Positions 4,057-44,892 are shown, counted from the stretch's first letter. The stretch: DNA of 64,000 nt from Candidatus Omnitrophota bacterium (GCA_026387175.1 JAPLME010000007.1:128487-192486), one strand, 5' to 3'. A program made the numbers and translations. Notes: generated by a model not told the origin, from the letters alone.

Positions 4057-4111
4057 TCCTAGTTTATTAAGCCATACTGTCTGCCAAGTGCCGATATCCC
4101 TGATATCGGCC
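4057..4111 (-). repeat. Repeated leader element, copy 1 (hairpin GCCGATATC-CCT-GATATCGGC at 4090-4110, plus SD)
   Basis: Near-identical 55-nt sequence found at 6 sites. Ends in AGGAG 9 nt before the ATG of 3678..4046. Confidence 0.85.
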
Positions 4112-4120
4112 TTATTTATT

Positions 4121-4477
4121 TTATCCGGGCGGCCATGTGAATTTTCTACCGCCCATAAGATGCAGGTGCAGGTGGAGAACCTCCTGGCCCGCGTCTTTAT
4201 TGCAGTTCAATACGATCCTGTATCCCGAATCGCGTATACCCTTTTGATCAGCCAGCGTTTTTGCGGCAAGCACCAGCTCTCCTATAAGATGGATGTTGCC
4301 TTCAGTCAGGTCGGATGTCTTTTCGATGTGATATTTCGGGATTATCAATATATGTATCGGAGCCTGAGGTTTTAGATCTTCAAAGGCCAATATTTTATTA
4401 TTTTCGAATACGATTTTGGCGGGGATCTCTTTCCTTATGATCTTGCAGAATACGCAGTCGGCTTTATACATCAACAC
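4121..4477 (-). CDS. HIT family protein (HinT-like)
   Basis: Histidine-triad motif HLHLHLMGG. Confidence 0.8.
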   Translation of the reverse strand: MLMYKADCVFCKIIRKEIPAKIVFENNKILAFEDLKPQAPIHILIIPKYHIEKTSDLTEGNIHLIGELVLAAKTLADQKGIRDSGYRIVLNCNKDAGQEVLHLHLHLMGGRKFTWPPG

Positions 4478-5547
4478 ACTTCTTCCAGTTTGTACTCCAG
4501 GCCTCCCAGACCCATCCTGCTCGCGTAGTTTAATTGCACTGACCAGTCCGTCTCCGGATAACCTGCGGCAAATACGTCTTTGCCGCTTGAAGCTTTGATC
4601 AGATCTACAGAAGCCTTATCGATGGCGACCGGATCGCGTGAGGCCAATATGCCAAGATCGTTAACTATCCGGGGATCATCCTTGGCCAGGCAATCACAGT
4701 CCTTAGTGACTTTAATGATGAAATTTATATACCCGACACTTGATTTGAATGAGTCGGTAACGCCTTTGGCATATTCTACCATCTTTTCCTGCAGGTTTTC
4801 AAGTGTTTCGCTCCACCTTATCTCTATAGCTTTTGTCTTGCAGACCACCGCGCATTCGCCGCAGCCCAGGCATGCGTCTTTCGCGATAGAGATCTTCTTA
4901 TTCTTCAGGCTTAGGGCGCCGCCCGGGCAGACCCCCACGCATTCACCGCAAGCCCCGCAATACGAAGAGTTCACCTCAGGCACCGTACCGCAATGCTGTT
5001 CGTATTTTCCCCGGCGCGAGGCGCATCCCATCCCCACATTTTTTATGGCTCCACCCATACCTGTCAGTATATGCCCTGTTATATGAGTCATGGCGAGCAG
5101 GCTGTCGCAATCCGCGAAATCGGATGCCATTTTTATCTTTGAAAAATGCTTGCCTTTTACCGGCACCTCTACGAAACTTCTGCCCCTTAGGCCGTCCGCT
5201 ATCAGGACCGGAACGCCGATGTTTTCCGGGTTGAATCCGTGCTCTGAGGCTATCTTTAGATGATCGATCGAGTTAGTGCGACTGCTGGCTTTGTATATAA
5301 CATTTGAATCGGCCAGGAAGGCGTTAGAGGTTATGCCCTTTACATGTTTTGCCGTCTCCCTGATCCATTCCCATCGGATGTGCCCGGTATTGCCCTTATC
5401 CCCGAAGTGCATCTTTATCGCTGTGAAGTCATCTTTCTTGATAAATGATAGCACCTTGCTTTTGTCGATCAGCACCCCGAGTTTCTTTGAGATGGCCTGG
5501 ACCGAATCCTGTGCGTCTACTTTTATATAATGGACTTTACTAGGCAT
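4471..5547 (-). CDS. DUF362 domain protein with 2x[4Fe-4S] ferredoxin domain
   Basis: Two CxxCxxCxxxCP clusters (CGACGECVGVCP, CLGCGECAVVCK) embedded in a DUF362-like scaffold. Confidence 0.65.
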   Translation of the reverse strand: MPSKVHYIKVDAQDSVQAISKKLGVLIDKSKVLSFIKKDDFTAIKMHFGDKGNTGHIRWEWIRETAKHVKGITSNAFLADSNVIYKASSRTNSIDHLKIASEHGFNPENIGVPVLIADGLRGRSFVEVPVKGKHFSKIKMASDFADCDSLLAMTHITGHILTGMGGAIKNVGMGCASRRGKYEQHCGTVPEVNSSYCGACGECVGVCPGGALSLKNKKISIAKDACLGCGECAVVCKTKAIEIRWSETLENLQEKMVEYAKGVTDSFKSSVGYINFIIKVTKDCDCLAKDDPRIVNDLGILASRDPVAIDKASVDLIKASSGKDVFAAGYPETDWSVQLNYASRMGLGGLEYKLEEVC

Positions 5548-6088
5548 AATTTTTATCCTTCTCGTTATATATTTTTATACTATGTTTCAGAAGAAGCGCC
5601 GCTGTGACACCGTTGCCTTTTTTCAAAGCCCCCGTAAAAGTACCATCGTAAATCATGCCGCATCCGCATGACGGGCTTTTTGATTTCAGCACAGCCCGTT
5701 TTATCCCGAACCTCTTTGCCATGAGAAGCGTTTTTCGGGCGCCTGAGGCCAGTTTCTCTGTAACGTCTTTACCGGATACGGTCCTCACCTTCGCTTTCCC
5801 GGTCAAAACCCGCTCGCCATCGCCGTCGGATATTTCGCAAGCCTCGCGCGGGATGGATGACCCGCCGAGCACCTCCGGACATACGGGTATGGCAGCGCCC
5901 TCCAGCACTAATTTCCTTATATTGCGTTTTAATTTGTTTTTGCCGTTATAAGTGCAATTTATTCCGGCGAGGCATGCGCTTACGATAAATTTACAGGAAG
6001 GCTTCTTAAGGTTATCCTTACTTCGAGGAGCAGCCATAATAGCCGATCTTGTGGCCGAGATCCCAGTATTCGCCCTGATTAAATACAA
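5540..6088 (-). CDS. DUF523 family protein (TudS-like, putative Fe-S thionucleobase desulfidase)
   Basis: Conserved ACLAG-NCTYNG ... SPSCG ... IYDG pattern. True start is likely the internal Met near 6040, because 6041-6088 overlaps the flavin-reductase gene. Confidence 0.55.
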   Translation of the reverse strand: MYLIRANTGISATRSAIMAAPRSKDNLKKPSCKFIVSACLAGINCTYNGKNKLKRNIRKLVLEGAAIPVCPEVLGGSSIPREACEISDGDGERVLTGKAKVRTVSGKDVTEKLASGARKTLLMAKRFGIKRAVLKSKSPSCGCGMIYDGTFTGALKKGNGVTAALLLKHSIKIYNEKDKNYA

Positions 6089-6578
6089 ATGGCTTTGCTT
6101 TGTTATAGTCTATCTTCCCGTCAGCGCGTAAGATCGCTTCATCTTTGTGCACGGCCACCACCTCTCCTATGAACATATCGTGAGAGCCCAGTTTGAGCAC
6201 ATCCTTAAGCTTGCATTCGATGTTAACGGGGCATTCCTTTATCATCGGACTGGATATCTTCGAAGATTTTACCGGGGTGAAGCAGCAGCGTTTGAATTTA
6301 TCGGTATCTTTTCCTGAGACGAGACCGCAGAGGTCGGCTTCTTTTAAAATGTCCTTTGACGGTATATTGACCACAAATTCACGTTCGGCGGTTATTAATT
6401 TATGGGAATGCCGGGAAGGCCTTATCGAAACCGATATCTGGGGAGGATTGGATGCCACAATGCCGCACCATGCTATGGTTATAACATTCGCCCTGCCCGC
6501 TTTCCTGTCAAGCACGCTTACAAGAACTACGGGAACCGGATATAATGCCTCACCAGGCGGGGCTTCCAGTTTGCGCAT
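6018..6578 (-). CDS. Flavin reductase-like FMN-binding domain protein
   Basis: Flavin_Reduct-like core (VITIAWCGIVASNPPQISVSIRP). Track ORF extends to 6671, but the upstream 31 codons overlap 6586..6888; start moved to the internal Met. Confidence 0.55.
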   Translation of the reverse strand: MRKLEAPPGEALYPVPVVLVSVLDRKAGRANVITIAWCGIVASNPPQISVSIRPSRHSHKLITAEREFVVNIPSKDILKEADLCGLVSGKDTDKFKRCCFTPVKSSKISSPMIKECPVNIECKLKDVLKLGSHDMFIGEVVAVHKDEAILRADGKIDYNKAKPFVFNQGEYWDLGHKIGYYGCSSK

Positions 6579-6585
6579 TTTACTG

Positions 6586-6888
6586 TCAGGTTTTCTGCGG
6601 CGCTTCTTCCGTCTTTGCGGGTTTTTTATTCGTGGTGCCCCAGCATCTCTTAGTGCAATAGTACTTGCCATTGCGGTAATACCAGCGTTTATTCTTTATG
6701 GACTTTTTGCAGCCCGCGCAATTAGCCGGTTTCTCCTTCACTACAGGAGCCGCTTCCTTCTTCTCTTCTTTCGCCTCAGCAGGTGCGGCTGCTGCCGGTG
6801 AAGCTTGTGCGGGCGCCGCCTGCGGTGTCACTGGCGCTTCCGGCGCTTTCGCTTCCTTCGTTAGCTCTTCTTTTTTTTCGTCTGCCAT
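6586..6888 (-). CDS. Small Ala/Pro/Lys-rich protein with C-terminal 4-Cys zinc-ribbon-like motif
   Basis: CAGC-x16-CTKRC. N-terminal low-complexity AP/KE-rich linker. Confidence 0.45.
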   Translation of the reverse strand: MADEKKEELTKEAKAPEAPVTPQAAPAQASPAAAAPAEAKEEKKEAAPVVKEKPANCAGCKKSIKNKRWYYRNGKYYCTKRCWGTTNKKPAKTEEAPQKT

Positions 6889-6911
6889 ACACCACCGTTA
6901 ATTGTTATCTG

Positions 6912-7265
6912 TTATGCCCTGTCAAGTATCTTCAACCACTGCAAATAAGTATATTCTAAAAGCCTTCCCCTGTCTGAATTATCGATCTTTGTGAACTTCA
7001 AACCCGTCTCATATGGGCCGGAGCTACCTGAGCCTTCCTGCTGCCACGCCACCTGGCATGCGGCAAATATCGGCACATTATCACCCGGCACGTCCACTGA
7101 GAGGTTTATTTCGGCGCCCTGTCCAAATCTCTTGTCGGTCAATACGAGAGCGCCTTCACTTGATATATTCTTAACTTTATACGATCTCTTGCATTTTTCG
7201 CTTACGATCTCGCATAACGCGTTTAACGCGGTATCGAACCTTAAGAATCTTCTTCTCTCGTTCAC
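6912..7265 (-). CDS. PilZ domain protein
   Basis: ERRRFLR (RxxxR) and NISSEG motifs. Confidence 0.65.
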   Translation of the reverse strand: MNERRRFLRFDTALNALCEIVSEKCKRSYKVKNISSEGALVLTDKRFGQGAEINLSVDVPGDNVPIFAACQVAWQQEGSGSSGPYETGLKFTKIDNSDRGRLLEYTYLQWLKILDRA

Positions 7266-7289
7266 GATGTCCTTTTTAGAATATTGGCA

Positions 7290-7336
7290 TAAAAAATAAG
7301 GGGATAAAAATTTATTATTTCTATCCCCTTATTTTT
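7290..7336 (-). terminator. Rho-independent (bidirectional) terminator
   Basis: A-tract, then AAGGGGATA, a 15-nt loop, TATCCCCTT, then a T6 tract. Lies 3' of 7356..7688. Confidence 0.6.
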
Positions 7337-7355
7337 TGGAAAACATCACAATGAA

Positions 7356-7688
7356 CTATTTTCCCTTAAATACAAATTCTGGCTCGAGAACCGGGGTATA
7401 GCCTTCCGGTATCGGGAATGGGAACGTCGCGGTCTCATATACTCCTGCGCCCGTTCTGACTATCGTCATTCCAACACCTTTCGCTAATCCGACCGTGAGG
7501 CCAGAGAGAGGATTGTCCTCTACGCTTGTATCATAGATATTCTTCGGAAGCTCGACCCAGCCGGTAACGATGTTGGCTAAGCCTCTATACAGCTTCTTAC
7601 CCATATCCTGAGCGTAACTAGCTGTCGCTATATTGAGTAACATTAATATAGCCACGCAAATTATAATTCCTTTTATCATGTTCTTCAT
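7356..7688 (-). CDS. Small secreted protein (signal peptide)
   Basis: N-terminal signal peptide. Own strong promoter and terminator. Short GWVELPKNIY motif. Confidence 0.5.
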   Translation of the reverse strand: MKNMIKGIIICVAILMLLNIATASYAQDMGKKLYRGLANIVTGWVELPKNIYDTSVEDNPLSGLTVGLAKGVGMTIVRTGAGVYETATFPFPIPEGYTPVLEPEFVFKGK

Positions 7689-7725
7689 TTTGATTTGTCA
7701 CCCCCCCTCATCTTGATTTGCCTAA

Positions 7726-7754
7726 AGTATAACACAAGATAAAAAAATTGTCAA
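7726..7754 (-). promoter_or_regulatory. Sigma70-like promoter (TTGACA-N17-TGtTATACT) for 7356..7688
   Basis: Perfect -35, 17-nt spacer, extended -10. GAGGGGGGG SD downstream. Confidence 0.5.
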
Positions 7755-7774
7755 GTTTATCGCAATATAAAAAA

Positions 7775-8146
7775 TCACTTCTGCCTTCGTACCTTCAATA
7801 TCTCATCAATGATATCGGATATCTTATCCCTATCCTCGGGCCTTATATCTATAAATTCAATGCCGGTGTCGTAATAGTAAGATCCCTTCTGCTTGGGATC
7901 GGTTTTCTTCACGACCCATACTAATGTGCCGCCGCACTTTATCTGGGGGCCTTTTTCGTCTATGAAGAGCTCTACGTCTACACCTTGAAAAAGACCGAGA
8001 TCCTCTTTCAGTAAAACGCATATGCCGCCCGCGCCGATGTTCTCCGTATGGGTCGATATGGTTTTAGCCGTCAGCCTCTTCTTTATGGATATGAGGCATT
8101 TATAGTTTGCCCTGGGAAACCTGCGCCTGTTGATACCATTCCACAT
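7775..8146 (-). CDS. PilZ domain protein
   Basis: NRRRFPR (RxxxR) and NIGAGG motifs. Confidence 0.65.
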   Translation of the reverse strand: MWNGINRRRFPRANYKCLISIKKRLTAKTISTHTENIGAGGICVLLKEDLGLFQGVDVELFIDEKGPQIKCGGTLVWVVKKTDPKQKGSYYYDTGIEFIDIRPEDRDKISDIIDEILKVRRQK

Positions 8147-8200
8147 AAATTAACTATGCCTCCATGATAAGCGTATCAAATTTATGCATTGCCGCGTGTT

Positions 8201-8229
8201 ATTATACATAACCGTAAATCAAAAAGCAA
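8201..8229 (-). promoter_or_regulatory. Sigma70-like promoter (TTGCTT-N17-TATAAT) for PilZ gene 7775..8146
   Basis: Perfect -10 hexamer, 17-nt spacer. Divergent from the exeA promoter. Confidence 0.4.
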
Positions 8230-8254
8230 GCACTTCTTGGCTAAAAATTTTATA

Positions 8255-8284
8255 TTTACAATATTAATGACGAGGGTGTATAAT
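8255..8284 (+). promoter_or_regulatory. Sigma70-like promoter (TTTACA-N18-TATAAT) for exeA-like gene
   Basis: Perfect -10 about 17 nt upstream of ATG 8301. No obvious SD, so possibly a short-leader transcript. Confidence 0.4.
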
Positions 8285-8300
8285 CTACCACAAGACATAT

Positions 8301-9116
8301 ATGTATAGAGAATTTTTCGGCTTAAAAGAGAAGCCCTTCAATATAACAAGCGACCCCAATTTCTTGTTCTTGAGCCGTGTCCATAAGGAAGCCCTATCCC
8401 ACCTGCTATATGGCATAAACGAACGGAAAGGTTTTCTCGAAATAACCGGCGAGGTCGGCGCCGGCAAGACTACCCTGTGCAGGGCGCTGCTTAACAGGCT
8501 TGATAAAAGGACTAAGAGCGCATTTATATTCAACTCCACGCTTCCGGAACTGCAGCTTCTGCAGGCTATACTTGAGGATTACGGTATAATAGTCACCAGC
8601 CGCAATAAGGTGTCGTTATTGAAACAGCTGAACAATTTCCTTATAGAGGAGCTCACGCGCGGAAACAATGTCGTGCTCATTATCGATGAGGCCCAGAACC
8701 TGAAGCCTTCGATACTCGAAGAGATAAGGATGCTTTCGAATCTTGAGACTGACAAGGATAAGCTTTTTCAAATCGTGCTGGTCGGACAGCCGGAGCTGAA
8801 AAACAAACTGGCTTCGCCCGGACTAAGGCAGCTCAGGCAGCGTATATCCGTACGTTTTCATATAACACCTCTTGATAAGGACGAGGTGGCGGATTACATA
8901 AGCCACAGGCTCGGCGTGGCCGGGTCGGCGGGCCAGATAACATTTGAGCCCGGAGCGATCGAGAAGATACATGATTTTTCAGGAGGCATACCTCGTCTTA
9001 TCAATATGGTCTGTGATAAATCCATGCTGACGGCGTATACGATGGAGACGATGAAAATAACCATGCCGATCGTGGAGCGCAGCATTCAAGAGATGGAAGG
9101 GTGTTTACCGAGATGA
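8301..9116 (+). CDS. ExeA/GspA-like AAA ATPase (secretin assembly)
   Basis: Walker A GEVGAGKTT, Walker B VLIIDEAQ. Characteristic ExeA N-terminal region (FGLKEKPF). Confidence 0.75.
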   Translation: MYREFFGLKEKPFNITSDPNFLFLSRVHKEALSHLLYGINERKGFLEITGEVGAGKTTLCRALLNRLDKRTKSAFIFNSTLPELQLLQAILEDYGIIVTSRNKVSLLKQLNNFLIEELTRGNNVVLIIDEAQNLKPSILEEIRMLSNLETDKDKLFQIVLVGQPELKNKLASPGLRQLRQRISVRFHITPLDKDEVADYISHRLGVAGSAGQITFEPGAIEKIHDFSGGIPRLINMVCDKSMLTAYTMETMKITMPIVERSIQEMEGCLPR

Positions 9117-9646
9117 GTATTATTCAGGAGGCGCTGGAAAAAGCGCAATCGGATGTAAAGGATGTAAAGCCTGCCGTGCAGGAAATTGCGAAGGCATCCG
9201 GAGTTAAGAAAGCGCCTGTGACTAAAAAGGCGCCTATAGCTAACAAGAGAGCGCTGATGGCGGTTGTGCTTTTAGCTCTTATGACCTTTGCGGTGTTTTC
9301 AGCCGGAAGATTTTTATCAAAGATAGGCGATAGAACGGACAGGACGAGCGCCGCGAACTCGCAGGAAGTCAGCTACAGGCCTCTTGTCAGGGATCAAGCG
9401 AAGAGCCCTAATACTGCCGGCAGTCGGGAACAGATAAGCGTTTCCCCGGAAAACCTGAAGGCGCCGGAGAGCCCGAAGCTCGTTTTAAACGGAATAATGT
9501 ATTTGGATGACGGCCCGAGAGCGATAATAAACAATTTTATAGTAGGATTGGGTGACTCGGTGAGCGGCGCGAAAGTTACCAGGATAAACCGCCAAAGCGT
9601 TATTCTTGAATATCAGAATGTGGAGATAACGCTTAGCTTAAAGTGA
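9101..9646 (+). CDS. Membrane-anchored GspB/ExeB-like C-terminal domain protein
   Basis: 16-nt overlap with exeA. Single TM helix. C-terminal LNGIMY..PRAIINNFIVGLGDSVSGAKV resembles the GspB C-terminal domain. Confidence 0.45.
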   Translation: MFTEMSIIQEALEKAQSDVKDVKPAVQEIAKASGVKKAPVTKKAPIANKRALMAVVLLALMTFAVFSAGRFLSKIGDRTDRTSAANSQEVSYRPLVRDQAKSPNTAGSREQISVSPENLKAPESPKLVLNGIMYLDDGPRAIINNFIVGLGDSVSGAKVTRINRQSVILEYQNVEITLSLK

Positions 9647-10097
9647 GCTCGAGCTTATGGATATTGAAACCGCTTACCGATAGAGTGTCGGTTTCCTTGA
9701 AGCCTTTTTTGATGCATAGCTTCATCGCGTCCGACATCCTGTCGGTGCATCTGAAGCAAATCTTCTTGTAATTATTCTTCCTGCAAAAATCAATCGCTTT
9801 TTCAATGAGTTCCGATCCGTAACCGTGGCGGCGGCGTTTTACATCAACGAACAACCTGCGTAATAAAGCTGTATCGCTGGTCTCCATCTTGACCCCGACG
9901 GTTCCCGCTACCTGGGAGCCTTCATCAATGACAAAGAACGCGTCTTTTTTTCCCCCGTATGTCTCGCCGATCTTTTCCAGATCGCTGTCGGAGTAAGCGG
10001 ACTTATCAAAAGGATATTCTCCGGCGAGTATACCGAGTATCAGTTCTTTTACGCTGTTGGCGTCGCTCTTTTTATATGCTCTTAAAGTATGTTCCAT
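9633..10097 (-). CDS. GNAT family N-acetyltransferase
   Basis: Acetyl-CoA binding motif RRHGYGSELI. Confidence 0.7.
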   Translation of the reverse strand: MEHTLRAYKKSDANSVKELILGILAGEYPFDKSAYSDSDLEKIGETYGGKKDAFFVIDEGSQVAGTVGVKMETSDTALLRRLFVDVKRRRHGYGSELIEKAIDFCRKNNYKKICFRCTDRMSDAMKLCIKKGFKETDTLSVSGFNIHKLELTLS

Positions 10098-10120
10098 AGT
10101 TCGAGTCCTCCGGTAAGAAT

Positions 10121-11215: not shown

Positions 11216-11229
11216 AGAGGATGATGAAA

Positions 11230-11550
11230 TTATTTTGCCGTCTTCTTGGCATCACTGCCGGCAGCCGGTTTCACCGGGCCTTTAGCCGGAGCGGTCTTTT
11301 CGGCAGAAGCGCCCGTGGCTGCGCCCGGAGCCGCCGGTGCGGCCGCGCCTTCGGCAGCGGTTTCGGTTGCGGCCGCCTTCTCTTTTTTAACTTTGAACTT
11401 AACTATCTTGATCTTGGGCAATTTATATACAGAATCTTTTTCCGTCCACTTATCTTTATCCTTCAGTATCTTTACTCTCTCGTATCTTTTTAGAACTGAT
11501 CTTTGCGCTTTATCTTTATCCGACGAGCGCAGGCTTGGATGCTGTGACAT
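11230..11550 (-). CDS. Small basic protein with Ala/Pro-rich C-terminal tail
   Basis: ORF preceded by leader-element copy 2, which supplies the SD. Lys-rich N-terminus. Confidence 0.4.
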   Translation of the reverse strand: MSQHPSLRSSDKDKAQRSVLKRYERVKILKDKDKWTEKDSVYKLPKIKIVKFKVKKEKAAATETAAEGAAAPAAPGAATGASAEKTAPAKGPVKPAAGSDAKKTAK

Positions 11551-11555
11551 ACTTC

Positions 11556-11611
11556 CTCCTAGTTTATTCAGTCGTATTGCAGGCTAAGTGCCGATATCTC
11601 TGATATCGGCC
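11556..11611 (-). repeat. Repeated leader element, copy 2 (hairpin 11590-11610)
   Basis: Same 55-56 nt consensus. Loop is TCT/AGA instead of CCT/AGG. Confidence 0.85.
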
Positions 11612-11626
11612 CGTTTATCCTTCAAC

Positions 11627-12250
11627 TTACCTTGGTTTAAGCATTGCGTCTTTGTAAATGCTTTTTACTCTGGCCAGGTCTCTCTCGGCTTCGGCACTGT
11701 TAGCGTAGATCCCAACGCATACTCTATAGTAAAACTGACTGTACGTTACAGCGGCGTTAAGGCCCTGCCGGGCCAGTACCGCGCAAGCGGCCTCGGCATT
11801 CTCCCGCTTGGTGAATGTGCCGGCGAGTATTGTGAAAGGCTTAGAGGCCTTACCGATGGCCGCTGTTTTTGCCTGCTCTTGAATTATCTGCCTGGCAGGC
11901 GCCATATTCTTCGCGGCAGGAACTATAGGCGCCGTATTCAATATGTTCTTAGCCGGAATGGTGGCCGGGCGGTTCTGCTGGGCCTGGGAGACAGGAGGTG
12001 ATGGCAGAGGTTTCGTTACTTGAGCGCCGGTCGTGTCCGCGCGGGACTTCCCGCTTTCGACGCCCAAAGCATACACTACCACCATCACCATCATTATCCC
12101 TATTGAAATGAATACCAGCTTCTCCAGGCTGATAGTGATGGCGACCCTGCCTTCGAAATCAGCTTTTGGCAGCATGTCCGACAGGCGCGAAAAAGATCTT
12201 TTTGGCTGTTCAAACTCAAACAGTTTTTTTTGGTACTTTTCCTCTTCCAT
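11627..12250 (-). CDS. SPOR domain protein (DamX/DedD-like, peptidoglycan-binding)
   Basis: N-terminal TM. C-terminal SPOR fold (ILAGTFTKRENAEA...YRVCVGIYANSAEAE). Position upstream of aroB mirrors the E. coli aroB-damX linkage. Confidence 0.65.
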   Translation of the reverse strand: MEEEKYQKKLFEFEQPKRSFSRLSDMLPKADFEGRVAITISLEKLVFISIGIMMVMVVVYALGVESGKSRADTTGAQVTKPLPSPPVSQAQQNRPATIPAKNILNTAPIVPAAKNMAPARQIIQEQAKTAAIGKASKPFTILAGTFTKRENAEAACAVLARQGLNAAVTYSQFYYRVCVGIYANSAEAERDLARVKSIYKDAMLKPR

Positions 12251-12272
12251 AGCTCCGGTCTAATTTTTGCGT

Positions 12273-23755: not shown

Positions 23756-23829
23756 TGGAGCGAGCGAGGGGAATCGAACCCCCGTAGCCAGCTTGGGAAG
23801 CTGGTATTCTACCATTGAACTACGCTCGC
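23756..23829 (-). tRNA. tRNA-Gly (anticodon CCC)
   Basis: Minus-strand read GCGAGCGTAGTTCAATGGTAGAATACCAGCTTCCCAAGCTGGCTACGGGGGTTCGATTCCCCTCGCTCGCTCCA: 7-bp acceptor stem, D and T arms, anticodon loop TTCCCAA, encoded CCA. Confidence 0.9.
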
Positions 23830-28121: not shown

Positions 28122-29152
28122 CCAAAGAACGTCCTGGCTATATCATATAATTTCACATCAACGGTTTTGAGCGTGCCGACAGCGTCCTGAATAGGAACTC
28201 CTGTTACATCGGTACCTCTTAGACTGGCCATGTAACCGAACTTTCCGGCAAGGACCAGGTCCATCGCCGTTACGCCGAAACGCGTGGCAAGAAATCTGTC
28301 AAAAGCGCTCGGGGTCCCGCCTCTCTGAATATGGCCGAGGACCGTGGTCCTCGTCTCTATCCCGGTCCTCTTTTCTATCTCTCCTGCCAGCGTCTCTCCG
28401 ATGCCGCCCAGCCTTACATGGCCGAACGAGTCGAGCTCCTGCTCTTTCAGCACTGTCTGTCCGGCTTTGAACTGCGCGCCCTCCGCCGTAACCACTATGG
28501 AAAATTCATGGCCCGCCGCTTTTCTCTTCTTTAATATCGACGAGACCTCATCAAGGTCTATCGCGATCTCAGGGATCAATACGATATTCGCTCCCGACGC
28601 GATCCCTGAATGGAGCGCCAGCCATCCCGCATGGCGGCCCATCACCTCGACTACCATTACGCGGTGGTGGCTCTCCGCGGTGGTGCGCAGCCTGTCGATG
28701 GCTTCAGTAGCGATATTTACGGCCGTATCAAAGCCGAACGTATAATCTGTCGCGTTAAGATCGTTATCGATGGTCTTAGGACATCCCACTACATTGATGC
28801 CCTTATTTTCCTTGTTAAGCTTATTGGCGACTCCGAGGGTATCCTCGCCGCCTATAGCGATAAGAGCGTCGAGCCTGAGCGCCTTATAATTATCAATAAC
28901 ATTCTTAACGTCATCCGGTTTCTTATAAGGATTAGTCCTGGACGTGCCTAGAATGGTCCCGCCTCTATACAATATCTCGGAAACGGAATTAAGGTCGAGA
29001 TCTACCGTATCGATCCGGACAAGGCCTTTCCATCCGTTCTTGATACCGACTACTTTTATATTGTTCTGGGATGCTTTTACGACAACCGCCCTTATCACAG
29101 CGTTCAAGCCGGGGCAATCTCCGCCACCTGTTAATACGCCAACCATCTTCAT
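28118..29152 (-). CDS. pfkA: 6-phosphofructokinase
   Basis: Motif GGDCPGLNAVIRAV. PFK fold throughout. Confidence 0.85.
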   Translation of the reverse strand: MKMVGVLTGGGDCPGLNAVIRAVVVKASQNNIKVVGIKNGWKGLVRIDTVDLDLNSVSEILYRGGTILGTSRTNPYKKPDDVKNVIDNYKALRLDALIAIGGEDTLGVANKLNKENKGINVVGCPKTIDNDLNATDYTFGFDTAVNIATEAIDRLRTTAESHHRVMVVEVMGRHAGWLALHSGIASGANIVLIPEIAIDLDEVSSILKKRKAAGHEFSIVVTAEGAQFKAGQTVLKEQELDSFGHVRLGGIGETLAGEIEKRTGIETRTTVLGHIQRGGTPSAFDRFLATRFGVTAMDLVLAGKFGYMASLRGTDVTGVPIQDAVGTLKTVDVKLYDIARTFFG

Positions 29153-29174
29153 CTCTTCCTCCTTGACAATTTTA

Positions 29175-36133: not shown

Positions 36134-36135
36134 TT

Positions 36136-36927
36136 TTATACCCTCAGGTCTCTCTTTATCTGTTCTATTCCCGCTTCCGCGGCCTCAGCACCTTTTGCTA
36201 TTATCTCGCGTGACTTGTCGAACGCTGCCTGGTCTATATCCGTAAGATAAACTTTTATTACAGAGTCCGCATCGCGGGATTGATACTGGTTCAACTCTTC
36301 ACCCATTATCTGGAATGACTGGACTATCATCTGGAATATATTATCGATCTTGCCCCTCCTTACGCAGAAGCCCACATCCACCGCTATCACATAATCAGCG
36401 CCCAGATCCCTGGCGATCTTGGTCGGCACGCTATGTTTAATACCGCCGTCCGAAAGAAGCCTTCCGTCAATTCTCACAGGATTGAATATGCCGGGCCATG
36501 AACAGCTGGCGCGCACGACCTTTATCAGATTGCCTTTCTGGAAGACCACCTCTTCTCCCGTCTCGATATCGTTAGTCACCACCGCAAGCGGTATCTTACA
36601 GTCTTCGAATTGCTTACTGTCTATCAGGTGCTTGATCGTGGCCTCCAGTTTCACGCCTGCAAGAAGCCCCATCGAAGGCATTGTGGGGTCAAGTATTTTT
36701 TTCATCGTAAACTTGTATGCGCGTTCTTCCATCTGGGATATGGGGACACCTACAGAGTAAGCGGCTCCGATCATGGCCCCCATGCTGGTGCCGACAATAC
36801 TATCGATCGGTATTTTCTCCCTTTCGAGTATCTTCAGGACTCCTATGTGCGCTAAACCTCTCGCGGATCCTCCTCCCAAAACGAGCGCCACCTTTCTCCG
36901 CTTTTTATTATTAAGAAAATCGAACAT
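36136..36927 (-). CDS. Patatin-like phospholipase
   Basis: Oxyanion motif GGGSARG, nucleophile GTSMG, DGG motif. Confidence 0.8.
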   Translation of the reverse strand: MFDFLNNKKRRKVALVLGGGSARGLAHIGVLKILEREKIPIDSIVGTSMGAMIGAAYSVGVPISQMEERAYKFTMKKILDPTMPSMGLLAGVKLEATIKHLIDSKQFEDCKIPLAVVTNDIETGEEVVFQKGNLIKVVRASCSWPGIFNPVRIDGRLLSDGGIKHSVPTKIARDLGADYVIAVDVGFCVRRGKIDNIFQMIVQSFQIMGEELNQYQSRDADSVIKVYLTDIDQAAFDKSREIIAKGAEAAEAGIEQIKRDLRV

Positions 36928-36935
36928 GTAGCCTT

Positions 36936-36991
36936 CTCCTAGTTTATTCAGCCGTATTGCAGGCTAAGTGCCGATATCCCTGATATCGGCC
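36936..36991 (-). repeat. Repeated leader element, copy 3 (hairpin 36970-36990)
   Basis: Same consensus. AGGAG lies 8 nt upstream of the patatin gene ATG. Confidence 0.85.
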
Positions 36992-37800
36992 TAACTTATT
37001 ATTATTCCGGCATAGCCGACCACGGACAGATAATCCCCCGATGTATCGCCGCTGGTCTGATACTTTACCAGCTTTGCATGTTTTGCGCCAAGCTCCTTCG
37101 CCGCTGTTATCATAATGGCCGCAGGCGCGTAGCCGCACATAGTTATGTCGAGCTCCAATACCTTTTTAACAAGCTTTGTTTCGTCCAGCTCCAGCATAGC
37201 ATCGATCGCGATCGAATCTTTCTTTTTAACGCTTTCATGCGATTCATAATGAGTCATGTCGCTCGACGCTATTATCGTGACCTCTTTTTCAAGTTTCATG
37301 GTTTTGATGGCGCCGGCTATCGCTTCCCCGATTTTTTTATATATACTCATGTCCGCGTACGATACCACGATTGGCACGATCTTAAAATCTTTTTGCAGGA
37401 CCTGTAAAAACGGGAGCTGCACTTCTATGGAATGCTCATGCTGATGCGACAGGCTGTCGTTCTTTATGTATGCGCAGTTTTCCATTATCGCGCCCGCAAG
37501 AACCCTGTCTATCCCGATATTGCCCAGAGGTGTTTTCCAGGAATCGTTCTTATCCAGCCCAAAGGCCTCGCCTAAACCCGTATGATTCGGCCCTAGTATT
37601 ACGTATCTTTTCTTCGGTTTCATAGCCGAGAATACGCTTCCCGCCACAGAACCGGAATATATATACCCCGCATGCGGTGAAATGGCGCCAATGGCGTCTT
37701 CTTTCTTCGCGTTCGGATCGACCAGTTCACAGACCGCGCGCCTTAATGCCTCTCTGGATCCAGGATAGAACTGACCCGCGACAACCGTTTCTCTGACCAT
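36991..37800 (-). CDS. AmmeMemoRadiSam system protein B (Memo1-like)
   Basis: VAGQFYPGS...SPHAGYIYSG...GPNH. Confidence 0.75.
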   Translation of the reverse strand: MVRETVVAGQFYPGSREALRRAVCELVDPNAKKEDAIGAISPHAGYIYSGSVAGSVFSAMKPKKRYVILGPNHTGLGEAFGLDKNDSWKTPLGNIGIDRVLAGAIMENCAYIKNDSLSHQHEHSIEVQLPFLQVLQKDFKIVPIVVSYADMSIYKKIGEAIAGAIKTMKLEKEVTIIASSDMTHYESHESVKKKDSIAIDAMLELDETKLVKKVLELDITMCGYAPAAIMITAAKELGAKHAKLVKYQTSGDTSGDYLSVVGYAGIIIS

Positions 37801-37812
37801 ATTTTTGCCCCT

Positions 37813-40434: not shown

Positions 40435-40589
40435 GCCATTTTTCTCTTGCGCCGCTTCTGCTCGCTCGGCTTCTCGTAATGCTTTCTAGCCTTAAGCGTC
40501 TTAAGAGTTCCCTCTATCTCCATCTTTTTTTTGAATCGTCTAAGCGCCTTTTCAATAGGCTCATTCTCACCAACGGTGATCTTAGGCAT
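40422..40589 (-). CDS. rpsU: 30S ribosomal protein S21
   Basis: 55-aa ORF below the track's size cut-off: MPKITVGENEPIEKALRRFKKKMEIEGTLKTLKARKHYEKPSEQKRRKRKMAWKK. Matches bS21 (ENE.IE.ALRRFK ... YEKPS ... RKRK). Confidence 0.8.
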   Translation of the reverse strand: MPKITVGENEPIEKALRRFKKKMEIEGTLKTLKARKHYEKPSEQKRRKRKMAWKK

Positions 40590-40621
40590 CTTTTATCTCA
40601 CCCCTTTGCATGATTTTCCAT

Positions 40622-40650
40622 ATCTTATCAGCCGCTCTACCTGTTGTCAA
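40622..40650 (-). promoter_or_regulatory. Sigma70-like promoter (TTGACA-N17-TAAGAT) for rpsU
   Basis: Perfect -35 overlapping the stop of the NYN gene. AGGGGTGA SD before the rpsU ATG. Confidence 0.35.
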
Positions 40651-41033
40651 GGTCTAACTAATTTATCCCAGAACGCTTCGCATTTCAGCGGCGTGGCAAA
40701 ATAGCTCTTCGCATGATAATATATATCGTTGTCCGACGATACGACCCTTATATTGCGCCTCTGCCGGTCAGGGGTATCCTCTATATACTTTTTTATATAA
40801 TTATCTGCGTCTCTTGAGGCCACTATTCTTAGTTTCGGCGTGCTCGTGTAGCGTATATCGAGATATTCATTTGTGCTGTCAAATACCAGCACAATGGGAT
40901 CGTTATGGGTTTCCTGAAACTCGCTTAGATATGATATGAGTGCCTGGGCGGATTCGAGAGAATCCGCGCCGTCATCTCTTATTCTGGACCTGCGGTTTCG
41001 TATTAAATTCCACCCATCTATTATAATCGGCAC
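40647..41033 (-). CDS. NYN/PIN-like domain protein (YacP/Rae1-like)
   Basis: IIDGWNLI start and acidic residues (DSTNE, SSDND) typical of LabA/NYN nucleases. Confidence 0.55.
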   Translation of the reverse strand: MPIIIDGWNLIRNRRSRIRDDGADSLESAQALISYLSEFQETHNDPIVLVFDSTNEYLDIRYTSTPKLRIVASRDADNYIKKYIEDTPDRQRRNIRVVSSDNDIYYHAKSYFATPLKCEAFWDKLVRP

Positions 41034-41036
41034 GGT

Positions 41037-41291
41037 TTACTTTAAAGCAGCTTGTAAATTCTGCATCTCCCTCAACAATATCTGATACAACTCTATGGAA
41101 GATTTAAGGGCCCATAACGTAAAAATAATTGTTAGCGCGGTAAGGACTATCTTTTGCCAACTTTTGAAGGCAGGGCTGATCCAGACCATAGGTATAGCGA
41201 ATGGCCCGATGCCGATTATCGCTATCAATATTACCGCGGGTTTCAGATACCACTTAACCGTCTTTTTATCAAGCTGGACATCCGGCGCCAT
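41037..41291 (-). CDS. Small membrane protein
   Basis: Two predicted TM helices. 84 aa. Confidence 0.35.
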   Translation of the reverse strand: MAPDVQLDKKTVKWYLKPAVILIAIIGIGPFAIPMVWISPAFKSWQKIVLTALTIIFTLWALKSSIELYQILLREMQNLQAALK

Positions 41292-42474
41292 AAAGGCCTT
41301 TCGTGTATGACTTCTGTTCTTTCAATGCCAGGGCTATGTCTTTTTCCGCCGTAAACCCTAGCTGCGTCAATATATCACCCAGGAGCATTCCTCGTCTCCA
41401 ATGGGTCGTAAGGGCCTCGTCCAGTTTTTCGGCTGTTATCATCTTCCGGTCCAGCAGGATCTGCCCGAGAGGCTTGTAAGTATAACCCTCACCGGTATCC
41501 GGCTTAAAGACATGCGGCGAGCGGCGGGCCTCCTTAGGACCGGTGCGCCTGTCGGCCATGTATTTTGATCCCGTAAGGGCCTTGAGATAGCGTTTCACTT
41601 CCGCTATCTTTTCATTTATCTCTATTACATTCTTAAATTTTTCATCTTCGCCGCTGTTCACCACAGCTATCGACACGCTGACCAGAGGTATGTTCTTTAT
41701 CTTATGGTCTCTGGCTCGCGCAACTACATAGCCGCGGGAACGGTCTTCTTTATTATAGTGGAACGGCATTACCATATTGAATGCCGCGATGAAGTTCTGG
41801 CATATCGCGGCATGTTTATCGGGAGTGGTGATAAACGCGAAGTCATCCCCTCCTATGTGCCCTATAAAATCGCCGCTATTACCGAACTTCAGTATTGTCG
41901 TGTAGAGCATATAGGCCGTTTGCATTATGACACGGTCACCCTGCAGATAGCCGTACATATCGTTGAAATATTTAAAATTGTCCAGATCCAGATATCCGAA
42001 GGAAAAGGCCTTACCGTCCTTTAGCCTGTCGCGCAGGTTTTCTTCGATGAGCCTTCCGCCCGGGAGCCCTGTAAGAGGCATTGAATAGAAGCTGTATTGC
42101 AGGCGTTTTATTGCCATCTCGACGCGCACCCTCAGATCAAGTGGATCCGGAGGCTTTATCAGGTAATCGTCCACCCCCTGTTTGATGCTCAAGAGATGCC
42201 CGCGAAGCTGTCTTTTATTGATAAGGGTTATTACCGGAATGTAGGCCGTAATGAAATCGCTTTTAAGGAGCCCGCATATCTCCAGATCCATATGCTTTGC
42301 CGCGTGAACATCGATCACTATGACGTTAGGCGAGATCTTTTTTATAGGCGTGACATCATGTACCATCGTTTCGAAAAGGATAACCTGATACCCCCATCCG
42401 TCGAAGCAGAATCTCAACACTTCGCGCAAATTTTTATCGGATGATATTATCAGGATCTTTTTCGGCTGGTCCAT
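41269..42474 (-). CDS. Response regulator receiver - GGDEF(GGDDF) - MshEN (T2SSE_N-like c-di-GMP binding) domain protein
   Basis: REC domain with phospho-acceptor Asp (VIVIDV). GGDEF domain whose signature reads GGDDF. C-terminal LGQILLDRKMITAEKLDEAL...GMLLGDILTQLGF resembles the MshE N-terminal c-di-GMP-binding domain. Confidence 0.7.
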   Translation of the reverse strand: MDQPKKILIISSDKNLREVLRFCFDGWGYQVILFETMVHDVTPIKKISPNVIVIDVHAAKHMDLEICGLLKSDFITAYIPVITLINKRQLRGHLLSIKQGVDDYLIKPPDPLDLRVRVEMAIKRLQYSFYSMPLTGLPGGRLIEENLRDRLKDGKAFSFGYLDLDNFKYFNDMYGYLQGDRVIMQTAYMLYTTILKFGNSGDFIGHIGGDDFAFITTPDKHAAICQNFIAAFNMVMPFHYNKEDRSRGYVVARARDHKIKNIPLVSVSIAVVNSGEDEKFKNVIEINEKIAEVKRYLKALTGSKYMADRRTGPKEARRSPHVFKPDTGEGYTYKPLGQILLDRKMITAEKLDEALTTHWRRGMLLGDILTQLGFTAEKDIALALKEQKSYTKGLYGAGCPA

Positions 42475-42497
42475 CTCTTCCTCTCGCGAAATCCGCT

Positions 42498-43055
42498 CTA
42501 AAACTTAACCTCCGGCACGGCCTTTGCTTTATCTTCCGCCCTGAAGTACTGATTGGCCGGCTTATACCCGAAGATCCCGGCTACGACATTTCCGGGAAAT
42601 CGCCGGACGGTTATATTGAAGTCCATGACGGCTTCATTAAATCTCATCCGTTCTACTGCTATGCGGTTCTCGGTGCCCGATAGCTCGTCCATCAATTTGA
42701 GGAACGTTCCATCCGCCTTAAGCTGCGGATAATTTTCAGCTACAGCGATGAGCCTGCCCAGGGCCATATCCATACTTGACGCCGCATTCACTTTATCATT
42801 CAGAGTACTGGCGCCTGCCCACTGCGAACGCGCCTTTGTTACATCCTCGAAAAGAGTCTTTTCGTGCGCGGCATAACCTTTAACGCTATTAACGAGATTC
42901 GGTATCAGGTCGTTACGCCTCTGGAGCTGGTTCTCGACCTGCGCCCATTTAGCCGTTATGTTTTCATTCTTGGAAACAATGCTATTGTAAACACCTGCAA
43001 ATGATACCGCGATCACTACCGCGATGATTCCTAACGCCACCAAAAAATTTTTCAT
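42498..43055 (-). CDS. LemA family protein
   Basis: N-terminal TM plus LemA core (YNSIVSKNENITAKWAQVENQLQRRNDLIPNLV). Confidence 0.8.
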   Translation of the reverse strand: MKNFLVALGIIAVVIAVSFAGVYNSIVSKNENITAKWAQVENQLQRRNDLIPNLVNSVKGYAAHEKTLFEDVTKARSQWAGASTLNDKVNAASSMDMALGRLIAVAENYPQLKADGTFLKLMDELSGTENRIAVERMRFNEAVMDFNITVRRFPGNVVAGIFGYKPANQYFRAEDKAKAVPEVKF

Positions 43056-43062
43056 TTCATCT

Positions 43063-43118
43063 CTCCTAGTTTATTAAGCCCTATAGCAGGCTGAGTGCCG
43101 ATATCCCTGATATCGGCC
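43063..43118 (-). repeat. Repeated leader element, copy 4 (hairpin 43097-43117)
   Basis: Full element with AGGAG SD 8 nt before the LemA ATG. Confidence 0.85.
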
Positions 43119-43170
43119 TAGTTTATTCAGCCATATTGTATGCTAAGTGCCGATATCCCTGATATCGGCC
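43118..43170 (-). repeat. Repeated leader element, copy 5 (tandem, hairpin 43149-43169)
   Basis: Directly abuts copy 4. SD is degraded to AGGCC. Confidence 0.85.
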
Positions 43171-43193
43171 TTATGTTTTACCCTTCGCCGAAA

Positions 43194-44105
43194 TTAAAAT
43201 CCTCCACCGGCCCCTCCGCCTCCTCCGAATCCTCCGCCGAATCCTCCGCCTCCTCCGAATCCTCCGCCGCCTGTGCCCCAGCCCCCTGAAGTGGAAGTCC
43301 ATGTGCCGCCAAAGAGTTGAGGCCCGAAGAAATCGCGACGTTTTTTGCCCGGGAGCTTCCGCCAGTAAACATACCTTACCGCCATAGAAGCAATGTAAGC
43401 GACAACTATCGAAAGTCCGGTAATCTGATTAAAATTATACAGTGCTACGGCGAATATCATGGTGAACGGCAGACTGATGATAATAGGCCATGGGATGCTC
43501 CAGATAAAGAAAAATAGCGGAATTCCCGCGTATAATACTATATTGCCCAGAAGAGAGCCGGAGGTGAGCAGTCCGCGGTTAAGGCTGACTCCCTTTAAGG
43601 TATCAAGCGCGATATTCGAATTCCGAGATATAATATCCGCTATTGCCGCTGTCCCGTTGTAAAGGCCTTCAGCGTACTTTCCCTGTTTAAAAAGAGGCAC
43701 CATGTAGCTGCGGCCTATCTCACCGCATTTTCCATCCGGCAGGATTCCCTCCAGGCCATAACCGGTCTCTATTCGCCAGCGCCTCTCCTTGACCGCGAGA
43801 AGTATCAGAACGCCGTTATCCTTACTTTTTTTCCCTATCTTCCAATTATCAAAGAGAAGCCTCGCGTAGCTGATCTCATCATACGGAGCGATCGATTCCA
43901 TCGCGACCACTGCTATCTCCGCCGATGTCCTTGCCTCCACCTCCGCTATTAGAGTCTGCAATTTCTGGCGATATTCGGGCGATATGACGTTAGCGTAGTC
44001 GTTTATCCACCCTTCGGGTTTTGGCACAGCCTCAACCCCCTGCGCAGGGCACGCAAAAAATAATAACGCGAATAAAACGGCAACAGCAAACGTCTTCTTA
44101 ATCAT
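43194..44105 (-). CDS. TPM domain protein (TLP18.3/Psb32/MOLO-1 family) with Gly-rich C-terminal tail
   Basis: Signal peptide, TPM phosphatase-like domain, TM segments, (GGGF)n tail. Conserved LemA-TPM gene pair. Confidence 0.7.
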   Translation of the reverse strand: MIKKTFAVAVLFALLFFACPAQGVEAVPKPEGWINDYANVISPEYRQKLQTLIAEVEARTSAEIAVVAMESIAPYDEISYARLLFDNWKIGKKSKDNGVLILLAVKERRWRIETGYGLEGILPDGKCGEIGRSYMVPLFKQGKYAEGLYNGTAAIADIISRNSNIALDTLKGVSLNRGLLTSGSLLGNIVLYAGIPLFFFIWSIPWPIIISLPFTMIFAVALYNFNQITGLSIVVAYIASMAVRYVYWRKLPGKKRRDFFGPQLFGGTWTSTSGGWGTGGGGFGGGGGFGGGFGGGGGAGGGF

Positions 44106-44836
44106 TATAGTTTATCTACCACCGAAACAATCGATTCAAGTTCTTTTACTAAACCGGACAGGAGCGCATCCACATCTTTATAAGCAAGCGACATCTTCTT
44201 ATTCTTCGCCCAGAGTATCTTGCTTAACATTGCCGTATCAACGCCGAGCGCTTTTTCAGCGGAATTCAGTATTTCCTCTTTTAGGTATGGAGGATGGATC
44301 CCCTTAAGCCTGAGAATGTTGCGCATTATATGAAGCGCCGAGGTGAAAGTCTTGAATAATAGATTCTCCAGATCTGTCTTGTTTTTTGTAGAGAGGTATA
44401 ACTTCTTTATGTTTATAAGTTTGGACTTGAGTTCCTGTTCGCATTGGAAGCGCAGATTCTTGTTATCTACCTTAAGGCCCTTTATCAGGTCTCTTCCATA
44501 CAGGATCGTATAGTTTTCCGTGATGTCCAGAAATTCTATCGGAAAGACATCGAGAGAGCTCTTAATATATCCCTCGGTAAAGAATACAGGGCTTATCATC
44601 TTGAACTTGCGGGAATTAATTATTGAGTACGCTTTAGAAAGGTTGGCCAAAGATGTGTCGTCTAAGACCACCATGACATTGACGTTCGAATATTTTTTAG
44701 CGAACTCGCCGCTTGAAGCGCTTCCATAAAGAATGACCGAGATGAGGGTATCCCGGTATAAATCTTTCAATCCGGCCGTGAAATTTTTCAGACGAGCTCT
44801 TAGCTCCTCCGGTAGATTTAGGTCATCCATGGGCAT
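44105..44836 (-). CDS. Nucleotidyltransferase-fold domain protein (possibly degenerate)
   Basis: LYGSASSGEF...NVNVMVVLDD resembles the minimal Pol-beta-type NTase GS...D.D motif. Likely start is the second ATG (44830), 6 nt after the AGGAG of leader copy 6. Confidence 0.45.
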   Translation of the reverse strand: MPMDDLNLPEELRARLKNFTAGLKDLYRDTLISVILYGSASSGEFAKKYSNVNVMVVLDDTSLANLSKAYSIINSRKFKMISPVFFTEGYIKSSLDVFPIEFLDITENYTILYGRDLIKGLKVDNKNLRFQCEQELKSKLINIKKLYLSTKNKTDLENLLFKTFTSALHIMRNILRLKGIHPPYLKEEILNSAEKALGVDTAMLSKILWAKNKKMSLAYKDVDALLSGLVKELESIVSVVDKL

Positions 44837-44892
44837 CTCCTAGTTTATTCAGCCATACTGTATGCTAAGTGCCGATATCCCTGATATCGGCC
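44837..44892 (-). repeat. Repeated leader element, copy 6 (hairpin 44871-44891)
   Basis: Same consensus immediately upstream of 44105..44836. Confidence 0.85.

Follow-up and report, generated by a model that had tools for sequence, protein, structure and literature searches.

A short, very probably mobile repeat at Shine-Dalgarno sequences in Candidatus Omnitrophota

INTRODUCTION

Small interspersed repeats are common, and two kinds resemble the one reported here: the mycobacterial interspersed repetitive units (MIRUs) and the repetitive extragenic palindromes (REPs) of the GTAG type. MIRUs, as a review summarizes them (Supply et al. 1997, via PMC3184786), are units of ~40 to 100 bp, many of them near 51 to 53 bp, that form head-to-tail arrays of variable copy number. 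The same review (PMC3184786) places them between the genes of operons, with which they are co-transcribed, and reports short direct repeats at their junctions and, from a comparison of filled and empty sites, signs of insertion. GTAG-type REPs carry a GTAG tag (or GYAG/GTRG) in >90% of their members (PMC3733652). Here we describe a 52-nt repeat in 64,000 nt of DNA from a Candidatus Omnitrophota bacterium (GCA_026387175.1 JAPLME010000007.1:128487-192486; "the window" denotes this whole stretch). We hold with good confidence that it is a REP/MIRU-like small mobile repeat whose insertion is specific for the Shine-Dalgarno (SD) sequence, regenerates that sequence, and is orientation specific. In the literature we searched, we found no account of repeats of this kind in Omnitrophota, nor of an SD-targeting element; what would be new is the SD sequence as an insertion site that is repaired on landing.

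RESULTS

A 52-nt unit in six copies

An earlier note, made from the sequence alone, had pointed to six hairpin-bearing elements of 55 to 56 nt fused to the SD sequences of unrelated minus-strand genes. A search for GCCGATATC-NNN-GATATCGGC that allowed up to two mismatches returned six matches in the window, all with perfect arms and all where that note had placed them, on the minus-sense strand at 4090-4110, 11590-11610, 36970-36990, 43097-43117, 43149-43169, and 44871-44891. The same pattern had 0 matches in 100 shuffles of the sequence, and none is expected by chance. The loop reads AGG in five of the six and AGA at 11590-11610, the single loop change already described. Minus-strand reading and alignment of the copies likewise bore out the described layout of conserved blocks around a variable segment: the hairpin, a block CACTTAGC, 9 variable nt, and a tail GGCTKAATAAACTAGG common to all six copies. 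The tandem period (43169 to 43117) sets the repeating unit at 52 nt, from GCC to AATAAACTAG, ending in CTAG on the minus strand; the repeat was real, but its proposed length had taken in 3 to 4 host bases. A profile built from 31 distinct units recovered with nhmmer exactly these six and no further, degenerate copy in the window.

All three reading frames of the unit (GCCGATATCAGGGATATCGGCACTTAGCATACAATATGGCTGAATAAACTAG) are closed, one by TAG (codon 9), one by TGA (codon 14), and one by TAA (codon 15), and the period is not a multiple of 3. Its ends, GCCGATATC... and ...AATAAACTAG, are not inverted repeats of one another, no terminal inverted repeats are present, and the two junctions share at most AG or TAG (a duplication of no more than 2 to 3 nt). 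All copies contain two ACT(T)AG motifs (e.g., 43118-43169). The 3'-terminal AAACTAG is where units join in arrays; CACTTAG, which follows the hairpin directly, might be an internal recognition or cleavage-like site. Just upstream of the TPM-domain gene start, 44106-44125 on the minus strand (ggtagATAAACTAtaATG) resembles the unit 3' end AATAAACTAG, which could be chance or a remnant. Three familiar repeat classes were dropped on architecture: units abut in arrays with no spacers or cassette open reading frames (ORFs) between them, which speaks against a CRISPR repeat, as the earlier note had held, and the unit lacks both the inverse-core/core pair (RYYYAAC/GTTRRRY) of an integron attC site and the 11-6-11 architecture of an Xer/dif site.

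Orthologous junctions with and without the unit

Relatives for the comparison of junctions were graded by the identity of their Memo protein, and their contigs show conserved gene order. Between the Memo and patatin genes, the window holds one unit (36939..36990, minus strand; hairpin 36970-36990). It is bordered by the Memo TAG stop (36991-36993) and by the patatin ribosome-binding site (RBS), whose GAG is at 36936-38. L143/L144 (80% Memo identity) hold two units at this junction, and in both the window and these relatives the insertion lies exactly between TTAG and GAG. The junction is empty in L141/L142 (83% Memo identity), L149 (78%), L150 (75%), L151 (70%), L145 (69%), and L152 (66%); in the empty sites the TTAG and GAGAAGG flanks are contiguous and lead on to the ATG (in L141, AAGTTAG|GAGAAGGCCGGATATG). 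Because the outgroups at 66 to 78% Memo identity are all empty, the empty state is ancestral.

Two further junctions tell the same story. Between the TPM-domain gene (43194-44105) and LemA, the window carries a two-unit, head-to-tail array on the minus strand, with the upstream unit at 43118..43169 (hairpin 43149-43169) and the downstream unit at 43066..43117 (hairpin 43097-43117), the latter abutting the host GAG (43063-43065) of the LemA RBS; L143 is empty here (TTAAATAG|GAGGAGAGG). Between the gene for a 217-aa protein (44908-45561) and that for a 243-aa protein, the window carries a single unit (44840..44891, minus strand; hairpin 44871-44891), and the orthologous junction of L145 is empty. 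Copy number also differs at orthologous sites elsewhere, with three units in L128 versus one in L130 and at least two in L134 versus one in L129. As judged from these alignments, filled and empty orthologous sites prove that the element is inserted DNA.

The same comparison assigns the halves of the RBS. The host right flank at the patatin site, GAGAAGGCTAC plus the A of the start ATG (36925-36927), occupies 36927..36938 on the minus strand and is the pre-existing half of the patatin RBS, present also in the relatives' empty sites. The earlier note had credited the element with supplying AGGAG; that holds for the terminal AG but not for the GAG, which is host sequence because it is also present in empty sites. 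On this evidence the element splits a pre-existing RBS (AG^GAG), and its terminal AG restores AGGAG. Of the proposal that this is a small mobile, SD-carrying cassette, the mobility is borne out by the filled and empty sites; the SD is not carried, the site having pre-existed and having been split and regenerated. The gene for the 243-aa protein most likely starts at ATG 44827 (MDDL..., as in its L145 orthologue), not directly after AGGAG.

The remaining two units are also single and on the minus strand. That with the AGA loop (11559..11610; hairpin 11590-11610) lies between a SPOR-domain gene (11627-12250) and the gene for a 106-aa protein (11230-11550), and the other (4059..4110; hairpin 4090-4110) lies between a HIT-family gene (4121-4477) and a PilZ gene (3678-4046). 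The genes that flank the units in the window are unrelated (HIT, PilZ, SPOR, Memo, patatin, TPM, LemA, and two without a Pfam match). Among the downstream genes named in the earlier note, PilZ, patatin, and LemA were upheld by Pfam; the 243-aa protein, called nucleotidyltransferase-like there, has no significant Pfam match, and neither has the 106-aa protein.

Copies in other genomes and metagenomes

That the six copies might be the only ones can be set aside, as a seventh lies in the same genome and others in metagenome-assembled genomes (MAGs) and metagenomes. The seventh, ~8 kb left of the window (L146, 11988-12013), has the compensatory stem variant GCCGATGTC-AGA-GACATCGGC (GATGTC/GACATC); as it stands ~175 nt after the preceding gene, its place is probably in a 5' untranslated region (UTR) and not between genes that are coupled. 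Independent assemblies of this organism from short reads break inside units (L137-L140 in 43066..43117; L146/L147 start in 4059..4110, and one such contig ends in the seventh copy), as expected for a multicopy repeat. A scan of genome contigs with the bare hairpin GCCGATATCNNNGATATCGGC gave, among the matches listed, two Candidatus Omnitrophota MAGs (L068 and L070) with true relatives, in which units stand in tandem with a different hairpin and the same tail. A more specific pattern found the element in 16 metagenome contigs from several samples, and two patterns found no copy in viral contigs. Palindrome-only searches need caution: as part of the gene for dihydropteroate synthase (folP motif GADIIDIGGES; many phyla, at least hundreds of genomes, L001-L120), the 21-nt palindrome GCCGATATCnnnGATATCGGC recurs widely, and in Shewanella and Moritella it also forms the stem of terminators with A/T flanks.

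These loci bear on the observation that all copies in the window have one orientation. The observation is correct, but it proves nothing alone because nearly all window genes are on the minus strand (by the gene table and also by skew). In the 16 metagenome contigs, either contig strand may carry the element, but its direction is invariably that of the downstream gene. The last unit almost always ends in ...AATAAACT(A/T)G, followed by GAG(G), 5 to 9 nt, and the start codon, which comes 8 to 12 nt after the array. The upstream stop codon is mostly 0 to 22 nt before the array, and sometimes its TAG abuts the unit. Arrays of two to three units are common, all multi-unit sites are head-to-tail, and no inverted pair was seen in the window or at the ~20 loci. 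Across the family, units measure 51 to 53 nt, with a variable segment of 9 to 12 nt, the end GGCWKAATAAACT(A/T)G, and a 21-nt hairpin with a 9-bp stem and a 3-nt loop (RGR; observed as AGG, AGA, GGA, or GGT, with AGA in most collected units); the arrays in L123, L135, and L070 mix hairpin types. The six copies thus very probably belong to a family of 51- to 53-nt nonautonomous mobile elements in a subset of Omnitrophota.

A two-sided target at the Shine-Dalgarno sequence

Flanks at ~20 independent sites define a two-sided target, A-rich...AG|GAGR. Positions -12 to -2 are A-rich, with A at -2 in 14/19 and G at -1 in 18/19; on the right, G at +1, A at +2, and G at +3 are each found in 16/18, followed by a purine at +4. 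The first unit of an array is preceded by host TTAG, ATAG, TAAG, AAAG, CAAG, ACGG, GGAG, and others, and internal units by CTAG or CTTG. Once the units are excised, the intergenic sense strand of the window has 203 AG dinucleotides, seven of them (3.4%) within AGGAG, and five of those seven are occupied; by another count, the element is carried by five of the nine window genes with AGGAG no more than 22 nt from the start codon. A reading of the left flank only, combined with neutral intergenic insertion, cannot explain this occupancy (binomial P of ~7e-6 for the window alone). We infer that the machinery recognizes the SD motif as part of its target, rather than that selection alone filters random insertions. 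Among the AGGAG sites without a unit, two look like ideal targets and may prove polymorphic for insertion within the population: one at 31652-31654/31644, with an upstream TAG stop overlapping the SD sequence (gtaTAGGAGcagcATG), and one at 29152-29167, with an A-rich left flank (attaataaaattgtcaAGGAGgaagagATG).

The 3' end of the unit itself (ATAAAnTAG) is similar to the left half of this target, a likeness that accounts for head-to-tail arrays, notably the mixed-hairpin arrays of L123, L135, and L070, which slippage cannot make. Spread of the unit without any enzyme, by microhomology-mediated template switching or unequal recombination via the flanking (T/A)AG and GAG, with the hairpin stalling replication, would suit the short homology common to both flanks of every copy, the variation in array copy number between orthologous sites, and the fact that no transposase was found. 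We consider it very unlikely, however, as 3+3 nt of microhomology is very little on which to base precise events, constant in orientation, that recur at many unlinked loci, the high AGGAG occupancy (5/9) suggests an efficient, directed process, and units are near-identical across genomes with ~33% neutral divergence.

Hairpin structure and sequence constraint

The hairpin shows covariation, which the earlier note had proposed to test. Eight distinct variants all keep the 9-bp stem, compensatory double changes occur at three stem pairs, 84.7% of cells are paired versus 29 to 40% in slid controls, and the observed covariation score exceeds that of every shuffle. To go by these substitutions, it is a single strand in its folded form that is conserved, rather than a palindrome in double-stranded DNA. 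B-type hairpins, with GGTC/GACC and GGCC/GGCC stems, are imperfect palindromes with two mismatched positions. Their TC/TC mismatches in the sense strand become tandem G.A pairs in the antisense strand, where folding is 2 to 3 kcal/mol better (four sequences); the modeled folding is a weak hint that the relevant single strand may be DNA rather than mRNA. The variable region offers a weak second stem (AGCC..GGCT), whose formation is inconsistent between variants.

The earlier note had offered the 21-bp palindrome as a double-stranded operator for a dimeric global repressor placed over 5' UTRs. Such an operator is in keeping with A-type units, whose perfect 9+3+9 palindrome lies upstream of many genes, but the variants keep pairing rather than sequence (GATGTC/GACATC, and the B-type GGTC/GACC and GGCC/GGCC), and the B-type palindromes are imperfect at two positions. 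Units moreover lie inside operons, not at promoters, form tandem arrays, and are present or absent between close relatives. We regard the operator as barely conceivable.

Sequence constraint extends beyond the stem. The unit is identical at 50/52 positions between the window and L144, with third codon positions of Memo and patatin 67% identical, and units of L128 and L130 are ~97% identical versus 84% for their flanks. Conservation above neutral sites fits either recent activity under enzyme-imposed sequence constraints or selection on function.

Searches for a known RNA family gave no match to the element, at the gathering threshold or at E ≤ 10, as the earlier note had suggested checking. 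At the gathering threshold the only Rfam match in the window was a tRNA-Gly, and a permissive scan (E ≤ 10) of the tandem site returned only a chance mir-725 match at E = 7. A CsrA-type GGA-loop reading was ruled out by the AGA loop of most units. So was a promoter inside the unit: no acceptable -35/-10 pair at proper spacing was seen on reading, and promoter scans list none in units.

Possible effects of an inserted unit on RNA

In sense orientation no U-tract follows the hairpin, as had been noted, and operon transcription should therefore read through. The predicted stability of the hairpin is about -12 kcal/mol per unit. Co-transcribed, each inserted unit would add 52 nt to the stop-to-start distance and one stem-loop between cistrons, which would presumably abolish tight translational coupling. 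It could also form a 3'-exonuclease barrier that alters segmental mRNA stability, as REP elements do. The predicted probability that the SD sequence is unpaired shows no consistent change on insertion, whether masking or unmasking. By analogy, a regulatory role of the unit in RNA is possible.

Such a role might even be primary: the unit would be an RNA leader acting in cis, or an element between cistrons, that is bound by a protein or an RNase, or serves as an exonuclease barrier or standby site, and governs the stability or translation of the cistrons on either side. Its mobility would then reflect spread or a domesticated module. The unit is always co-oriented with, and abuts, the downstream RBS; the whole of it, beyond the hairpin, is conserved above neutral sites; its hairpin covaries; read-through is expected; and REP elements in operons are known to act in this way (reviewed in PMC3184786 and PMC3733652). 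Yet presence, absence, and copy number vary between close relatives at the same housekeeping-gene junction, the adjoining genes are unrelated, no Rfam family matches, and predicted SD accessibility does not change consistently. The loop, moreover, is AGG, AGA, GGA, or GGT, with no conserved CsrA-type GGA, and B-type hairpins fold better in the antisense strand. A primary RNA role is unlikely on this balance.

On the opposite strand, the hairpin followed by T-rich runs had been proposed to stop antisense transcripts over the RBS as an intrinsic terminator. The runs are there, but they are not part of the element; they are host flank, i.e., the A-rich target, or the tail of a neighboring unit. 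Three of the six window copies pass a loose plus-strand terminator scan, left flanks are A-rich at most sites, CTAGTTTATT is contributed in arrays by the neighboring unit, and B-type hairpins are 2 to 3 kcal/mol more stable antisense. Loose as the scan is, the other three copies nevertheless do not pass it, the T-runs have interruptions and begin 2 to 4 nt after the stem, terminator-like calls are not above shuffles (10 versus 9.4; 12 versus 10.3), and genes are nearly all co-directional, with little antisense transcription to stop. An antisense terminator, whose T-rich tail would lie in host sequence outside the unit, strikes us as highly improbable.

Other features of the window

The only Rfam/ARAGORN match in the window, the tRNA-Gly (anticodon CCC), is at 23756-23829 within a minus-strand gene run. 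A 1,696-aa ORF with a GTG start (52995-58085, minus strand) has a G+C content of 0.40 to 0.43 versus ~0.48 elsewhere and may encode a giant surface or adhesin-type protein, or be acquired DNA. Four small stand-alone PilZ-domain proteins are encoded on the minus strand within 8 kb (422-817, 3678-4046, 6912-7265, and 7775-8146), and a GGDEF response regulator is encoded at 41269-42474; together they suggest dense cyclic di-GMP signaling. Plus-strand genes form two blocks, a 241-aa ORF at 45639-46364 and the stretch 8301-9646, in which an AAA_22 ATPase (271 aa) is followed by a weak T2SSB match, an ExeA/GspB-like pair, with a good promoter-like site upstream (8255-8284).

DISCUSSION

How the unit might move

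The features of filled sites can be accommodated by a simple scheme. The unit would insert in one orientation into an asymmetric sense-strand target, A-rich...AG^GAGR, which amounts to the A-rich enhancer and SD sequence of a gene and often overlaps the TAG or TAA stop codon of the gene upstream. Its end, ..AAACTAG, would make the junction CTAG|GAG, rebuilding AGGAG in an A/U-rich context, and insertion would be tolerated because the downstream gene keeps its RBS. With AATAAACTAG at its 3' end, a unit would itself offer an imitation of the target's left half, behind which further units could land and build head-to-tail arrays.

A trans-acting enzyme is presumably responsible for mobilization. 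One candidate would be a single-strand HUH/Y1 enzyme (REP-associated tyrosine transposase [RAYT]- or IS200/IS605-like) that recognizes the hairpin; another, an IS110-type or other site-specific recombinase that uses the shared AG (CT) core. Reminiscent of REP/RAYT and IS200/IS605 systems are the hairpin with its preceding ..TAG, the lack of inverted repeats, and the almost seamless insertion. IS110-type or other site-specific recombinases would fit at least as well the two-sided target and the recurrence of one dinucleotide (AG, or CT in the opposite strand) at the two junctions.

A bolder proposal is that the mobilizing machinery reads the translation-initiation signal itself (the A-rich tract plus AG^GAGR, sometimes with an upstream TAG stop) as its integration site, making the unit an "RBS-homing" element. 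We would put it just short of an even chance. If true, mobile DNA would have the RBS as its niche, regenerating the site on landing and forming arrays through the target copy in its own 3' end. Its units would be insertable punctuation between the cistrons of compact, highly co-directional Omnitrophota operons, and its enzyme would be a programmable-looking, short-target, orientation-specific integrase, possibly guide-RNA dependent.

Several points weigh against a mobile, SD-targeted repeat or against parts of that reading. Strict GAG adjacency could in principle result from very strong selection rather than target recognition, and conservation above neutral sites is also expected of a functional cis-element. 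No transposase or recombinase is found among the Pfam-annotated neighbors, and neither Y1/RAYT-like ORFs (Y..NP/HxH motif) nor a Y1_Tnp domain occurs in the 257 kb examined, which is a small part of any genome. Since the unit lacks terminal inverted repeats and shows a duplication of at most 2 to 3 nt, it cannot be assigned to a mobilization class. The metagenome search pattern biased the collected copies toward the exact hairpin. Lastly, L127 (the same as L068) has at 6172-6335 a ~2.5-unit array, its first unit cut to the 3' part directly after the upstream stop, that lies at an operon end and not at an RBS; the last TTG of this array begins a perfect TTGCAA-17 nt-TATAAT promoter for a 62- to 70-aa gene.

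A mobile repeat of this kind shows how a selfish element can colonize genomes with almost no intergenic space, and it suggests that a little-studied phylum has an enzyme for orientation-specific integration. Related strains with 0, 1, 2, or 3 stem-loops between the same two genes constitute a natural experiment, a series that can test the effects of intercistronic distance and structure on translational coupling and mRNA stability. The element also fragments short-read assemblies of these organisms.

Comparison with known small repeats

Classical miniature inverted-repeat transposable elements, derived from DDE-transposase elements, differ from the Omnitrophota unit, which has neither terminal inverted repeats nor a target-site duplication of fixed length (AG or TAG at most being shared). 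Closer in this respect are the palindrome-associated transposable elements (PATEs), which are IS200/IS605 derived, and the IS110/IS1111 elements, which likewise have no terminal inverted repeats, cause little or no target duplication, and insert in an oriented manner at a short specific sequence. A hairpin at an end is shared with IS200/IS605, and a dinucleotide core common to both junctions (here AG = CT) is shared with IS110. IS200/IS605 elements, however, read only the 5' flank, whereas here the right flank GAG(R) is as conserved (16/18) as the left AG, and they have hairpins at both ends, whereas here one strong 5' hairpin is accompanied by no more than the weak, inconsistently formed second stem of the variable region. 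We know of no element of the IS200/IS605 or IS110/IS1111 type that has an SD sequence as its target.

With respect to translation signals, there is a likeness to Neisseria REP2 and Borrelia IR-A/IR-B (PMC3184786), which lie immediately upstream of unrelated genes, contribute an RBS, and have stem-loops near the 5' end. Those repeats are larger and bring a promoter and an ATG; the 52-nt unit brings no ATG and no convincing promoter, and it restores two bases of a pre-existing site.

Several traits are held in common with GTAG REPs (PMC3733652, PMC3479197, and PMC3333891): a short hairpin capped by G+C (GCCG...CGGC in the present unit, whose stem is 9 bp and whose loop is 3 nt); a preceding tetranucleotide that ends in TAG and may coincide with an upstream TAG stop; subfamilies defined by compensatory stem changes; and a location between co-directional genes, where transcription is presumed. 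The tag differs, being CTAG/CTTG or host WAG here, and its conservation is confined to the last G (18/19) and the A before it (14/19). A REP is a 20- to 40-bp palindrome alone, in contrast to a 21-nt hairpin plus a 31-nt nonpalindromic tail. REPs favor inverted dimers, with head-tail pairs rare, and lie near the upstream stop at a variable distance from the next gene; units here are only head-to-tail and are fixed relative to the downstream start. In addition, no RAYT (TnpA-REP) gene was found in the 257 kb examined.

MIRUs are likened to the unit by description, not by sequence, host phylum and base composition being different. MIRUs carry small ORFs that overlap the stop and start codons of their neighbors (PMC3184786), whereas the Omnitrophota unit has stops in all frames, and the splitting and rebuilding of an SD sequence is not reported for MIRUs. 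What the two have in common is the size of the unit, direct tandem arrays, location in operons, co-orientation, and variable copy number, here with a period of 51 to 52 nt and one to three units per site.

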